Of a stretch of DNA of 19,267 nucleotides, positions 10,250 to 13,223 are shown one piece after another. Positions within the stretch are counted from its first letter, which is position 1. Every line of letters starts with the position of its first letter. Below the pieces are notes generated by a model that did no database searches, had not been told where the DNA came from, and saw nothing but the letters and a program-made list of their open reading frames with translations. The stretch lies in IMG/VR virus record IMGVR_UViG_2721755725_000016, positions 1 to 19,267 of that record, one strand, 5' to 3'. The stretch is from a virus. Taxonomy: Duplodnaviria > Heunggongvirae > Uroviricota > Caudoviricetes. The position numbers and the translations under genes are program-made.

Positions 10250-10858
10250 GTGAGTCAGGAGTCTTTTTTCACCATGTGATGTAATAGTCTGTGCTGCTGT
10301 GACTGCGCCGGATTTATCCACCAGCGCCAGCAACAGAGATCCATCGGGCAACACGGGGAATGTAAAATCACCTACCCCTTTCGCAACCAGATAATCAGAT
10401 TTGCCGTTTACAGCCTTTCTGCGCATGTCATCAAACTGACGGGAAAACGTATCCCGTCTTTGTTGTTCGTCCTTCTCTGCCCTTTTCAGGCGCTCCTGTT
10501 CGCGTCGCTGGCGCTCGGTTTCCAGTTGTTCCCGTTTCTGGCTGGTGGCTTCTGGTGTTTCCGTTGTCCGGTAATCAATACCCAGAACATCAGCGGCAAG
10601 AAGCGCCGCCTCTGTTGTGTCGCAGTTATTTACGCGTTTAATTAAATCCAGCCCATCACCAGCGCCGCACTGATTACAGATGAAGCTACCGCGCCCGTTG
10701 TCATCGAACCGGAATCGATCTTTGCCCCCACATGCAGGGCAGGGAGCATGACGGCGCGGAGAGTCAGGGACATTTATGTTCAGGCAGCCCAGCACATGAG
10801 GCCAGTTGTTTTCAGACGCACTGATAACCTGACGGATAAGATCAATGTTTCGCATCAC
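10250..10858 (-). pseudogene. P4 alpha-like primase, N-terminal about 202 codons only, truncated by IS copy 2
   Basis: Zn-ribbon CPACGGKDRFRFDDNGRGSFICNQCGAGDG, then a coiled-coil, then the start of a Toprim-like region. The frame runs into the IS terminal TCA, which supplies the stop. Confidence 0.7.
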
Positions 10859-11213
10859 CGTACCCCACGTGGTCTATAGCGTTTGCGATATGGCTAACCA
10901 GCATCTGCCACTTGGTTATTCCGTAATCAGTCAGCATGCCATCATTGTTTAGCCACATATCAAATTCAGCGGTTGTCGCAAGTTTCCACTTATCGCCGTG
11001 GACAGTCCTCATTGCTGGGTACATGAATGCGCAAATCAGATCACAAACATCTGACGGCTTCAGAGATGTAGTAATGGTGCGTCCCTCTGGCGTCTGAATT
11101 GCCATTTTCTCTTCACCAGTAGAATGAAGGTTATGAATCCACACAGCACCAGCAATCTTTGCCACCTGCTCTCCGATTGCGGAGCTAAGCGCCATTTCTG
11201 CATTTTCACGCAT
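10842..11213 (-). CDS. hypothetical protein (123 aa), operon upstream of primase
   Basis: ORF with start/stop overlaps to both neighbours. Confidence 0.5.
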   Translation of the reverse strand: MRENAEMALSSAIGEQVAKIAGAVWIHNLHSTGEEKMAIQTPEGRTITTSLKPSDVCDLICAFMYPAMRTVHGDKWKLATTAEFDMWLNNDGMLTDYGITKWQMLVSHIANAIDHVGYGDAKH

Positions 11214-11547
11214 GAGAACCTCCCGCTACAGTTGCGCCCATGTCATTAACCATGCTTTGCCATATCTCACGCCCGACGTCAGTCAATCCGTCCTTAGTGA
11301 CGCAACGCTCAAGAAGCTCGATCCCCACGGTTTCCCACTGCGGGTAGAACACTTTCATGGCTGCCAGTGTGTAGCTATCGATCAGGCTGCGAACGCCTTT
11401 TACTCCATTAACGATTTCCACACGTACGGCCTCGCCGTCCGCATCAACCATGAAATAGTCCCCGCCGCTGGTGGAGGTAATGTGGTTATACAGTGCCGAC
11501 GCATACTTATTTGCCAGCGCATTCAGTCGGAAATTTTTAGTAATCAT
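11206..11547 (-). CDS. hypothetical protein (113 aa)
   Basis: ORF preceded by GAGG; overlaps the downstream gene by 8 bp. Confidence 0.5.
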   Translation of the reverse strand: MITKNFRLNALANKYASALYNHITSTSGGDYFMVDADGEAVRVEIVNGVKGVRSLIDSYTLAAMKVFYPQWETVGIELLERCVTKDGLTDVGREIWQSMVNDMGATVAGGSHA

Positions 11548-11557
11548 GGCTCCATCC

Positions 11558-12160
11558 TCAGTGCGTCACTGGTTCCGCTGGCATGCCGTTTTCATTCAGT
11601 TCAGCTATAAAGCTGTTGTGAAGTTCAGCAAGCGTTTCACGACCAAATGGAGTCAGTGCTCCTTGTTCCACATCCATCATGGCTCTGTAGAAAATGATGG
11701 CGCGTTCTGTGCCAGACTCGATGCCAAAACGTTCTATCATCGCTCCCTCAATGTTGTTTGCCATAGCGAGGCGCTCTGCTACTGGATACAGCGGCATGGC
11801 GACGATGCCGTTGGAATAAACAGCCACTTCGGAAGGATTGCCAGTATCATCAATGATGCTGACAGTGCCGTTTTCCTCTCTCATTTCCAGCATGAATACT
11901 GTTGCGATCAGCCATCTCCACATAATGACGTTATGCTGTGATGTGTAATCGAAATATCCCTGGTTGCCGCCATCGGCAATAGCGAGATGTATTGACATAC
12001 CTTCATCTGGTTTATCGTCATAATCCCCGGCATCCAGACGATTTACGGCATCAATATATGAGACGGCCTCAACGCGTTCTGTCATGCCATCGTTGCTGCG
12101 GTACATGATGTTTACGCCGTCAGGCGTTGCTTCTGTATGGAAAGTTAAGAAATTATTCAT
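11558..12160 (-). CDS. hypothetical acidic protein (200 aa from the preferred start)
   Basis: Preferred start MNNFLTF at 12158-12160, 5 bp after the upstream stop. The track ORF extends to 12265. Confidence 0.5.
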   Translation of the reverse strand: MNNFLTFHTEATPDGVNIMYRSNDGMTERVEAVSYIDAVNRLDAGDYDDKPDEGMSIHLAIADGGNQGYFDYTSQHNVIMWRWLIATVFMLEMREENGTVSIIDDTGNPSEVAVYSNGIVAMPLYPVAERLAMANNIEGAMIERFGIESGTERAIIFYRAMMDVEQGALTPFGRETLAELHNSFIAELNENGMPAEPVTH

Positions 12161-12374
12161 GTTTCGCCTCGCCTGAATGATTCTGTAACTCATATTTGCC
12201 CAACAATTCGTCCGCTTCCTGAATAGCTTCTGGTACGCCATTGAGCAGTGACATAACCGCGCCAATCATTAACTTGTCTCTGTTGCTGGGGCTGGCCCCT
12301 TCAAGCCAGAACCCTAAAACAGTCTGAACCTGTTCGATGCGACATTGCGCTTCAATGAGCTGGATGTTGGTCAT
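12153..12374 (-). CDS. hypothetical protein (73 aa)
   Basis: Start overlaps the upstream stop (12371-12374). Confidence 0.45.
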   Translation of the reverse strand: MTNIQLIEAQCRIEQVQTVLGFWLEGASPSNRDKLMIGAVMSLLNGVPEAIQEADELLGKYELQNHSGEAKHE

Positions 12375-12634
12375 TTCGCACTCTCCACATCGATTAAACC
12401 GATATCTATCAGGGAGGTAACTTTTTGTAGCCAGCTATTGATTACTGTCGCCTGTTCCCCGCCCACCGAGGGAACAATCTCATTCATCACATGAACCAGA
12501 CCTGTGCGCGCTCTGGTAAGCCGTTCAGTCGCGCAATCTGCGGGAGTGAATGTGTCTGGATATGGCTCTTCACGCCCCAGCAATGATTCAATTTCCAGCT
12601 CACACGGATGACGATAAATTAAGTTGATATTCAT
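12371..12634 (-). CDS. hypothetical protein (87 aa)
   Basis: Start overlaps the upstream stop (12631-12634). Confidence 0.45.
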   Translation of the reverse strand: MNINLIYRHPCELEIESLLGREEPYPDTFTPADCATERLTRARTGLVHVMNEIVPSVGGEQATVINSWLQKVTSLIDIGLIDVESAK

Positions 12635-12825
12635 TTTTCACCCCCAAGAATTACCAGCTCGGCACGGGCATCGTTAACCAAAGATGAGCACGCTTTAATC
12701 GCATCCACGACATCAGTAGCGTCCATTTCTTCAGCCGAAAGACTGACAGCAACCAGGACAGCCGCTGCTTGCTCGATTAATTGAAGTGCGGACGTAAGGC
12801 GAGGGGTATTAATTGAGTTATTCAT
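12631..12825 (-). CDS. hypothetical protein (64 aa from the preferred start MNNSINTP)
   Basis: Preferred start at 12823-12825, 5 bp after the stop at 12818-12820. Confidence 0.45.
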   Translation of the reverse strand: MNNSINTPRLTSALQLIEQAAAVLVAVSLSAEEMDATDVVDAIKACSSLVNDARAELVILGGEK

Positions 12826-13036
12826 TGGTTGCCCCCGTTTTTCCTGGCATTTCGCCACCTTCCAGCAGGAAATGAACGTCACGAACGGCGAGATCCAATA
12901 TCGCGAGTAACGCCTTCAGTCTTTCGTCTCGTGAGGGAGAGTTGCTCACCAGAATGTCGTTAATCACTTCTGTCAGTGTGATGATCTGGCTTGTGCGTTC
13001 GAGGGGATCCATATGCACATCGTAGGTTTTAATCAT
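12818..13036 (-). CDS. hypothetical protein (72 aa, MIKTYDVHMDPLERTSQ...)
   Basis: GGAGG lies 6 nt upstream of the ATG at 13034-13036; that ATG overlaps the upstream stop (ATGATTAA). It is the in-frame C-terminal part of the nominal 355-aa ORF. Confidence 0.45.
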   Translation of the reverse strand: MIKTYDVHMDPLERTSQIITLTEVINDILVSNSPSRDERLKALLAILDLAVRDVHFLLEGGEMPGKTGATNE

Positions 13037-13223
13037 GTGCCACCTCCATGCGGATACGACCAGCAAAAAAGCAGATGTGATCGCGCACCAGAGAACGGCG
13101 AGCATCGCGTTCAGACTCGGCAGCAATATGATGAATTTTGGCGGTAATTGTCGGGCAATCGCGGCGAACTGCGGCGATAATCCAGATAAATTGCGGTTTT
13201 TGGGTAGGGGTAGTAGCCAGCAT
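13029..13223 (-). CDS. hypothetical small protein (64 aa, MLATTPTQKPQF...)
   Basis: Perfect AAGGAGG (plus-strand cctcctt at 13231-13237) lies 7 nt upstream of the ATG at 13221-13223. Different frame from the long ORF. Confidence 0.5.
   Translation of the reverse strand: MLATTPTQKPQFIWIIAAVRRDCPTITAKIHHIAAESERDARRSLVRDHICFFAGRIRMEVAHD

Follow-up and report, generated by a model that had tools for sequence, protein, structure and literature searches.

A C4-type RNA immunity module that probably gates an eight-gene early operon in an EcCIMP1-like phage-inducible chromosomal island

The window analysed here, a stretch of 19,267 nucleotides (nt) from a Caudoviricetes virus (IMG/VR record IMGVR_UViG_2721755725_000016, positions 1 to 19,267), contains a chain of eight small open reading frames (ORFs), O1 to O8, that leads into a primase-helicase gene. 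The original prediction had placed eight minus-strand ORFs of 64–200 amino acids (aa) from 13223 down to 10842, and all eight are found there. We propose that O1–O8 very probably make up the early/replication operon of a phage-inducible chromosomal island (PICI) of the EcCIMP1 kind, gated by an RNA immunity module of the P1-immI/P4 type. From the first cistron to the last, the chain reads as follows:

O1, 13029-13223, minus strand: 64 aa, Icd/Kil-like, first cistron of the chain; basic, isoelectric point (pI) 9.5
O2, 12818-13036, minus strand: 72 aa, acidic; also the terminal part of a 355-codon long ORF (nested genes)
O3, 12631-12825, minus strand: 64 aa, acidic, pI 4.2; no family above any threshold
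O4, 12371-12634, minus strand: 87 aa, acidic
O5, 12153-12374, minus strand: 73 aa, acidic; phrog_20558
O6, 11558-12160, minus strand: 200 aa, net charge -21; phrog_1515, a family widespread in prophages and PICIs of Enterobacterales
O7, 11206-11547, minus strand: 113 aa; forms a conserved pair with O6; paralogue of O8
O8, 10842-11213, minus strand: 123 aa; paralogue of O7; overlaps with its final codons the start and ribosome-binding site of the primase gene
Primase-helicase N-terminal fragment, 10250-10855, minus strand: about 200 aa, Pfam Zn_Ribbon_Prim (E 8e-16); cut by IS1203

The reading frames are tightly interlocked. Start and stop overlap by 8, 8, 4, 4 and 8 nt at the successive junctions from O1 to O6 and by 8 nt between O7 and O8, and O8 ends 14 nt inside the primase gene if that begins at ATG 10855, or 17 nt inside it if it begins at GTG 10858. 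Chaining by overlaps of 4–17 bp, as originally described, is therefore what the locus displays, but the 5-bp gaps described with it are not: the sole non-overlapping junction, O6–O7, has a gap of 10 nt. Each ORF starts with ATG (8/8) behind a purine-rich, Shine-Dalgarno-like stretch 5–10 nt upstream; that of O2, whose start overlaps the O1 stop by 8 nt, is GGAGGTGG, 5 nt upstream of the ATG. No internal terminator was found in the chain, and the sole terminator-like site on the minus strand in 10200-14000 lies upstream of it, at 13433-13447. This coupling geometry, together with the satellite identity of the element described below, agrees with the earlier view of one translationally coupled early operon leading into the primase of a phage satellite.

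Are these short frames genes? When compared with homologues of 30–98% identity, O1–O7 proved to be under purifying selection, with non-synonymous far below synonymous polymorphism (pN << pS) and ratios of non-synonymous to synonymous substitution (dN/dS) of about 0.1–0.4; the value is 0.15–0.25 for O1, and 0.20 for O3 against a 62% identical homologue in the related locus L023. O8 belongs to a narrow family, about eight clusters among 1.8 billion representatives, with homologues 39–66% identical, one of which (50% identical, in the divergent metagenomic element L059) holds the same position and likewise overlaps the primase start. Because of the selection on O1–O7 and the homologues of O8, including the one at the same position, we take O1–O8 to be real genes. 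Lack of conservation in related elements, which had been named as an outcome that would refute the original prediction, is not what we see, since homologues occur there. The NCBI pipeline annotates six of the eight as hypothetical proteins and covers O1 and O2, depending on the genome, by a 355-aa 'ash family' ORF or by an 'Icd-like' gene.

The first cistron has a family, contrary to the earlier statement that no ORF of the chain carries a recognisable motif. O1 is Icd-like, a homologue of cell-division inhibitors, matching NCBIfam NF033153 at 70.4 bits (cut-off 25), and shares 41% identity with the Kil region, at the C-terminal end of what used to be called the 'cI' ORF of P4; we refer to it as icd. 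Its first 90 nt are the most C-rich and G-poor of the 3.6-kb unit (C/G 2.25 versus a median of 0.84), and the start of icd is suggestive of a Rho-utilisation (rut) site.

Directly upstream of icd, Rfam models detect two RNA genes, an isrK-like leader and a C4-type antisense RNA, which the original picture of the locus had omitted. Together with the segments that can pair with one another, the module consists of:

isrK-like leader (seqA or a1–b1 equivalent), 13427-13504, minus strand: Rfam RF01394, 69 bits (gathering score 50)
Target a1, TTCGCAG, 13473-13479, minus strand: inside the isrK-like leader; pairs with a' over 7 nt
Target b1, GTACGAGG, 13456-13463, minus strand: inside the isrK-like leader, after a1
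TATAAT hexamer, 13380-13385, minus strand: 15 nt upstream of C4, read directly from the sequence
C4-type antisense immunity RNA, 13277-13364, minus strand: Rfam RF01695, 81.1 bits (gathering score 45), full length
C4 b', loop of the second hairpin, UCCUUGUAC, 13313-13321, minus strand: exact complement of b2
C4 a', single-stranded segment, CUGCGAA, 13299-13305, minus strand: exact complement of a1 and a2
icd leader, 13231-13272, minus strand: holds targets a2 and b2
Target a2, UUCGCAG, 13266-13272, minus strand: just after C4; pairs with a' over 7 nt
Target b2, GUACAAGGA, 13233-13241, minus strand: pairs with b' over 9 nt and overlaps the icd Shine-Dalgarno

The icd Shine-Dalgarno, GGAGG at 13231-13235, precedes the ATG of that gene by 8 nt. 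The predicted fold of C4 (-45.8 kcal/mol) has a long outer stem around two hairpins and a single-stranded segment. The isrK-like leader ends in an intrinsic terminator (stem 13433-13447 followed by a T7 run), its b1 target (GUACGAGG) pairs with b' over 8 bp including one G-U pair, and a weak c4-a1b1 match at 13465-13517 (22.5 bits) stays below the gathering score of 46.7. The TATAAT hexamer is a candidate -10 box of a constitutive promoter for C4 and icd. In Rfam terms, IsrK is the equivalent of P4 seqA and C4 that of P4 CI RNA (PMC3632133), and matches to the C4 and isrK models have already been reported in the Bro zones of Gram-negative PICIs (PMC10111431).

If C4 recognises these targets, loops and targets should change together. 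We compared 14 related elements from several genera, comprising at least nine specificity types, and used exact loop-target complements for the comparison, as full-length RNAduplex energies gave no discrimination between immunity types. An exact complement of the a' 7-mer (a2) lies 5–8 nt downstream of C4 in 13 of the 14 elements, and an exact complement of the b' 9-mer abuts the GGAGG, about 10 nt before the icd ATG, in a fixed register in 11 and with a 1-nt shift in two more; one element, L044, has neither an a2 nor a b2 match. Non-cognate loop-target pairs gave no match unless both came from the same type. Six near-identical islands fall into two immunity types, distinguished by block substitutions in C4 and matching changes at a1/b1 and a2/b2, while the protein-coding DNA flanking C4 is almost invariant among the six; the TATAAT hexamer is kept in both types although its flanking bases diverge. 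Among close relatives, variable sites number 17–24 per 50 nt in C4 and its targets versus 1–4 in O2–O5. Since C4 and its targets are the most variable part of the unit, the pattern points to immunity types that diversify on a conserved backbone. In the comparison with islands L005, L009, L010 and L011, the C4 gene and targets (13250-13400) make up the most variable 150 nt.

A long reading frame passes through the entire RNA module:

Long eta-like ('ash family') ORF, 12818-13885, minus strand: 355 codons; Pfam Phage_ASH, 99 bits, aa 124-232

Its start, equipped with a GGAGG, overlaps the stop of an upstream DUF4222 gene; it then runs through the isrK-like and C4 genes, crosses icd in a different frame and ends as O2. 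Each of the six close relatives keeps these 355 codons open, and an ORF of 247–386 codons spans the RNA genes in each of the 14 related elements. In eight of these the long ORF is in frame with icd, as in P4, and the window and four others have the variant layout, out of frame with icd and ending as O2. O2 has homologues of 39–48% identity that are likewise nested, in loci of Pluralibacter, Symbiopectobacterium and Buttiauxella. O1 with O2 on one side, and the 355-aa ORF of NCBI on the other, can both be correct, as nested genes. The Phage_ASH match itself (aa 124-232, or nt 13190-13516) falls on the two RNA genes, isrK-like and C4, and the three codon positions within it hold 35, 31 and 29 variable sites, with no bias; for these two reasons, the 'Ash' domain appears to be largely translated conserved RNA genes. 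In public annotation, the NCBI label switches between 'ash family protein' and 'Icd-like protein' for sequences of identical length across genomes.

What kind of element carries this unit? The region matches E. coli O111:H8 chromosomes at 100% identity and intact islands at thrW in other E. coli at 99–100%, and a matching region is present in about 1,080 of 5,426 complete genomes. The island site is the tRNA-Thr gene thrW, adjoining proA, and EcCIMP1 of strain MP1 has the same eight-ORF chain, its operon being about 99% identical at the nucleotide level. Experiments have verified EcCIMP1 as a PICI whose excision, circularisation and transduction occur only with the P22-like helper Kapi1; its mobilisation needs its own integrase and alpA, the latter helper-induced and required for excision and circularisation, and its small ORFs were treated as hypothetical proteins (PMC11773190). 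The element studied here is an EcCIMP1-like PICI at thrW. It is not a P4-like satellite, as had been proposed: psu, delta and sid are not annotated, the primase is of the DUF927 type and the helper would be P22-like rather than P2-like, Kapi1 being the demonstrated helper of EcCIMP1 (PMC11773190). With a P22-like helper, the suggested test of the effect on P2 derepression would be misdirected.

Other parts of the island fit this assignment. A tyrosine integrase gene, int, lies at 18053-19267 and adjoins thrW in the source genome. Upstream of the operon, a coupled chain runs in the order alpA, a 143-aa gene, antA, DUF4222 and the long ORF, with the AntA-domain gene at 15357-16190, upstream of the RNA module. 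The island has its own replication module (a DUF927 primase in intact copies) and lacks a full set of virion or lysis genes; downstream of the primase, intact islands have only ejection-protein-like genes. The intact primase-helicase of relatives is a protein of 918 aa with zinc-ribbon, Toprim (Toprim_3) and DUF927 domains (taken from the L002 protein); its N-terminal 200 aa, the part present in the window, are 31% identical to P4 alpha (BLASTP E 3e-26). Sister islands have 'P4 family' or DUF5906 primases in the corresponding slot.

How would the RNA module act on the operon? The a' and b' segments of C4 would pair with a2 and b2 in the icd leader, and as b2 covers the Shine-Dalgarno, icd would go untranslated. 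Each later cistron starts within or beside the preceding stop, and the chain would thereby depend on icd translation; an untranslated message, with its rut-like icd start, would be terminated or left untranslated. With icd untranslated and the cistrons coupled, neither O2–O8 nor the primase-helicase would be expressed, and replication of the island would have to wait for release of the block. A bypass probably exists: helper phage would induce alpA, transcription would enter from upstream, and ribosomes on the long eta-like ORF would cross the RNA genes and targets and override the block, as P4 eta does. In P4, eta is translated only from the late promoter, which prevents immunity-specific termination, and kil is the terminal part of eta (PMC10111431, summarising Forti et al. 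1999). The Rho polarity, the processing of C4 and the override by translation are steps that we infer from analogy with such systems. In the window copy, an insertion sequence (IS) in the DUF4222 gene would disconnect the override route.

A close mechanistic parallel is immI of P1 and P7, whose c4-icd-ant mechanism was reportedly worked out by Citron & Schuster (1990), Biere et al. (1992) and Riedel et al. (1993). In both systems, the first cistron behind a C4-family RNA encodes an Icd-family protein, and the downstream genes are translationally coupled to this cistron; a' and b' are complementary to a1/b1 upstream and to a2/b2 downstream, with b2 on the icd ribosome-binding site; and specificity types arise from co-varying loop and target, as between P1 and P7. 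The payload differs, being seven small proteins and a primase-helicase here instead of an antirepressor, and no Ant, KilA or Bro domain was found in O2–O8 or the primase with Pfam, NCBIfam or PHROGs. An AntA-type gene is present on the island, but upstream of the RNA module and not downstream of it, and the host of the module is a satellite island here and a plasmid prophage there.

The left operon of P4 has the order seqA, CI RNA, seqC, kil/eta, epsilon, orf151, cnr and alpha. The earlier comparison with P4 holds at the level of position and layout: the order of immunity RNA, kil, small genes and alpha primase is shared, a C4-family immunity RNA and an isrK/seqA-like upstream target control an operon that begins with Kil/Icd and ends in a replication primase, and the RNA gene lies within a long ORF (eta, 'Ash') whose translation is coupled to that of an alpA/vis-type gene upstream. 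It does not extend to the genes themselves. Homologues of epsilon, orf151 and cnr were not found among O2–O8, and the primase is of the Toprim plus DUF927 type, with only the N-terminus resembling alpha. Moreover, the nested short gene is O2 and not icd, the long ORF being in frame with O2, and sid, delta and psu are not annotated in intact L002, L005 and L008 (annotation only, no profile search), whose helper would be P22-like.

As regards EcCIMP1 and other Gram-negative PICIs (Pick et al. 2025; Mageeney et al. 2023, 'Bro zone'), the island shares with EcCIMP1 the thrW site adjoining proA and the gene order int, alpA, 143-aa gene, antA, DUF4222, 'Ash', icd, small ORFs and DUF927 primase, and differs in that the window copy is degraded, with IS1203 in DUF4222, a cut primase and a replaced late region. 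The published work on EcCIMP1 and PICIs contains no analysis of C4-icd targeting or of the small genes. A further related system is isrK-orf45-anrP of Gifsy-1 in Salmonella, where an isrK element with a leaky terminator likewise precedes a small ORF whose translation controls a coupled gene downstream; there, however, short IsrK RNA acts in trans as an activator of translation, the model includes no C4 RNA of its own, and the payload is an antirepressor leading to the antiterminator AntQ (PMC4825925).

We next turn to the proteins behind icd. All eight ORFs were searched against Pfam, NCBIfam, PHROGs and PADLOC, which returned only the Icd-like family for O1 and PHROGs without a function for O5, O6 and O7; the earlier remark that the ORFs lack a recognisable motif is borne out for O2–O8, none of which belongs to a characterised family in these collections. 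Sub-threshold matches to PTPS, TY-Chap1 and CARF were dismissed. The proteins O2–O8 are all acidic (pI 4.2–5.6), and O4, O5 and O6 have counterparts 30–65% identical in other genera: O4 homologues (49–55%) sit in the same slot in PICIs adjoining yicC and in other genera, O5 matches phrog_20558 at E 2.9e-9 and has homologues of 34–49% identity, and O6 matches phrog_1515 at E 5.5e-47, with 550 homologues, none bearing a functional name. Phage phiP27, Stx phages and Klebsiella phages have O6 homologues (30–37% identity) in their early-left regions. For O7, an AlphaFold model of high confidence (pLDDT 92.7) displays a helix, a beta-hairpin and three helices; the alignment profiles of O6 and O7 gave no match to PDB sequences. 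O7 and O8 are paralogues (Smith-Waterman z 6.4, 0 of 500 shuffles reaching the score; BLASTP E 5e-4), and paralogy among O2, O3, O4 and O5 was not significant. A domain shared by the O6 C-terminus and O7 (motif G-x-L-T-x-x-G-R-E) was considered and rejected (hhalign probability 3.7%), as was homology of O6 or O7 to P4 Cnr/DUF5375, a faint precomputed Pfam tag on some O6 homologues that neither hmmscan nor hhalign confirmed. Some homologues of the small ORFs bear spurious public product names: '2-polyprenylphenol hydrolase', 'ubiquinol-cytochrome C reductase' and 'nicotinic acetylcholine receptor subunit beta' (L004 4971-5549; L006 7222-7536; L007 6396-6659).

The interval between icd and the primase has a mosaic gene content that varies among elements. 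O7 and O8 form a 718-bp cassette (10842-11560) that is cleanly absent from the 91–92% identical islands L005 and L010, which keep the same primase directly after O6; the boundary of the cassette is the only non-overlapping junction of the chain. The O6–O7 pair is conserved in 45 species-level loci. In other islands O7 stands directly before three different primase types, and in Xenorhabdus and Yersinia O6–O7 lie in chains of small ORFs upstream of an excisionase, with no primase. A strict linkage of O7 to the primase was accordingly rejected, given these prophage contexts and the absence of O7 from L005 and L010. O2–O8 are drawn from an early accessory gene pool shared by temperate phages and satellites. 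If we had to guess, we would have them bind proteins of the host or the helper; O7 and O8, adjoining the primase, may be replication accessories.

Could the operon be read otherwise? That O2–O8 are counterparts of the derepression and early genes of P4, acting on a P2-like helper, for instance by inactivating its repressor, draws on the parallel of layout and on the resemblance of O1 to P4 Kil and of the primase N-terminus to alpha (31%). We consider it very improbable. Against epsilon, orf151 and orf106/cnr, O2–O8 gave BLASTP E values of at least 0.1 and hhalign probabilities of at most 4% (for O6 and O7 against orf106, about 2% or less), which speaks against the suggested correspondence to the epsilon/orf151 region; intact relatives have P22-like ejection-protein genes where sid, delta and psu are not annotated (by annotation only, no profile search); and the demonstrated EcCIMP1 helper is P22-like Kapi1 (PMC11773190). 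As a claim of homology, it is largely refuted, and of the eight ORFs only O1 resembles a characterised P4 early protein, Kil. It is also improbable, though less so, that O1 and O2 are not separate and the chain has six small genes instead of eight, O1 and O2 being covered by a single 355-aa 'ash family' protein (eta-like, of the Bro network). The open frame in 6/6 close relatives, the comparable ORF in 14/14 elements, the start overlapping the DUF4222 stop with its GGAGG, the Phage_ASH match and the translation of P4 eta from late transcripts (PMC10111431) favour such a protein. That match, however, coincides with the RNA genes and has no codon-position bias (35/31/29), icd has its own strong Shine-Dalgarno, which is the co-varying C4 target, as well as a family match and a dN/dS of about 0.2, and O2, too, is preceded by a Shine-Dalgarno, its start being coupled to the stop of icd. 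All the data agree with nested genes whose long and short products arise under different conditions, and the long ORF is in this respect more a complement than a rival of the gated operon.

Two further readings concern the role of the small proteins. O2–O8 might serve mainly as anti-host or anti-defence cargo (for instance acidic DNA mimics or inhibitors of restriction and defence) outside replication or regulation, made early so as to shield the island on entry or during replication. Their acidity (pI 4.2–5.6, with a net charge of -21 for O6), the gene content between icd and primase, which varies like that of an accessory hotspot, and the homologues of O6 and O7 in early-left accessory regions of temperate phages are consistent with this, but no ORF matched a known anti-restriction or anti-defence family, none was found by PADLOC, O7 is without a structural analogue, and acidity alone is weak evidence; we hold this reading to be unlikely. 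Somewhat less likely still is that O7 and O8, perhaps with O6, are accessories of the primase-helicase, such as loaders or copy-number regulators with a role like that of P4 Cnr. O7 lies directly before, and often overlaps, the primase gene in about 24 of the 45 loci, with three primase types, and O8 overlaps the primase start both here and in the divergent element, the position that cnr holds in P4. This has to be set against the lack of detectable homology to Cnr/DUF5375, the absence of O7 and O8 from the near-identical islands L005 and L010 with the same primase, and the occurrence of the O6–O7 pair in prophage early-left regions without an adjacent primase.

Several observations also weigh against the gated replication operon that we favour. 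There is no convincing -35 element near the TATAAT, and a consensus scan made no promoter call for C4. In Gifsy-1, isrK activates and does not repress translation of the downstream ORF (PMC4825925), which makes the role of the isrK-like leader here uncertain. The analogy with P4 is inexact, as the long ORF and icd are read in different frames here, which eta and kil are not. O6–O7 also occur without an adjacent primase, which weakens a role specific to replication. An alignment of 30 sequences gave no usable AlphaFold model for O6 (pLDDT 42), the O7 fold has no analogue in PDB or BFVD, and binding of host or helper proteins by O2–O8 counts as a guess.

Part of what is known here is not new: EcCIMP1 as a PICI, C4 and isrK matches in PICIs, and the C4-icd type of module. 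Our analysis adds the assignment of icd and of the RNAs, covariation for many PICI immunity types, the nested-gene variant and the apparent identity of the 'Ash' domain with RNA genes. The residual novelty lies in the functions of O2–O8 and in the out-of-frame long ORF. On these, we offer a tentative suggestion that we regard as possible but doubtful, namely that O2–O8 are new early effectors or that the long ORF is a ribosome-carrying override device. Some of O2–O8 could represent a new class of early satellite/phage effectors directed at the P22-like helper or at defences of the host; the strongest candidates would be the O6–O7 pair, conserved across Enterobacterales, and the O7/O8 fold, for which no structural analogue was found. 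The long ORF, open across two RNA genes without constraint at the protein level, may be purely a device for carrying ribosomes, which may let helper-induced transcripts override the RNA immunity without making toxic Icd.

On our reading, a single antisense RNA acting on a single ribosome-binding site can hold the early and replication programme of a satellite off, and a set of 'eight unknown ORFs' is replaced by a defined regulatory unit. The co-varying pairs split related islands into separate immunity types, which bear on the coexistence or exclusion of satellites in E. coli, including Shiga-toxin-producing strains such as O111. There is also an annotation problem, in that 'Ash' domain and 'ash family' calls seem largely to be translated RNA genes, and Icd and O2 are annotated inconsistently. 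For the search for satellite effectors, the field is narrowed to O6, O7 and O8, in an island family that already has a genetic system with a known helper.

The window copy itself has been altered by insertion sequences. Three identical 1310-bp copies of IS629/IS1203 lie at 3061-4370 (plus strand), 8940-10249 (minus) and 13978-15287 (minus), and the features of the island that bear on its present state include:

AlpA-family regulator, 16634-16831, minus strand: Pfam Phage_AlpA, 70.8 bits
IS629/IS1203 copy in the DUF4222 gene, 13978-15287, minus strand: splits the alpA-antA part from the long ORF and the operon

As the original prediction had noted, the primase is truncated; an IS1203 copy cuts it at 10250. 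The insertion in DUF4222 is accompanied by a 7-bp loss (AGACACG) relative to intact L002, and no matching target-site duplication was found at any of the three copies. Because of the missing duplications and of these 7 bp, it seems that IS-mediated rearrangements joined the island remnant to CP4-like genes. The late region is replaced relative to EcCIMP1. The insertions in DUF4222 and in the primase appear to have disabled both the upstream entry route and replication in this copy, and since it is interrupted by IS elements, it is probably immobile.

A few minor observations on the surroundings may be added. An int-alpA RNA motif (RF02996, 46.7 bits) lies at 17925-17992 on the minus strand, between the integrase and DUF6387 genes, and occurs also in L006, L015 and L027. 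Intact islands (L002 2416-7252; L008 5481-10827; L005 1-2645) carry genes like those for P22 gp14, gp7, gp20 and gp16 (DUF2824 and DNA-ejection proteins), in a region missing from the window copy; ejection proteins of its own are unusual for a satellite, and those of EcCIMP1 have also been remarked upon (PMC11773190). To the left of the island remnant are genes like those of CP4-like islands (antirestriction, RadC/JAB, YeeU/CbtA). The far left end of the window has two convergent, overlapping genes, for an HNH endonuclease (907-1566, plus strand) and for a DNA cytosine methyltransferase (1545-2615, minus strand).

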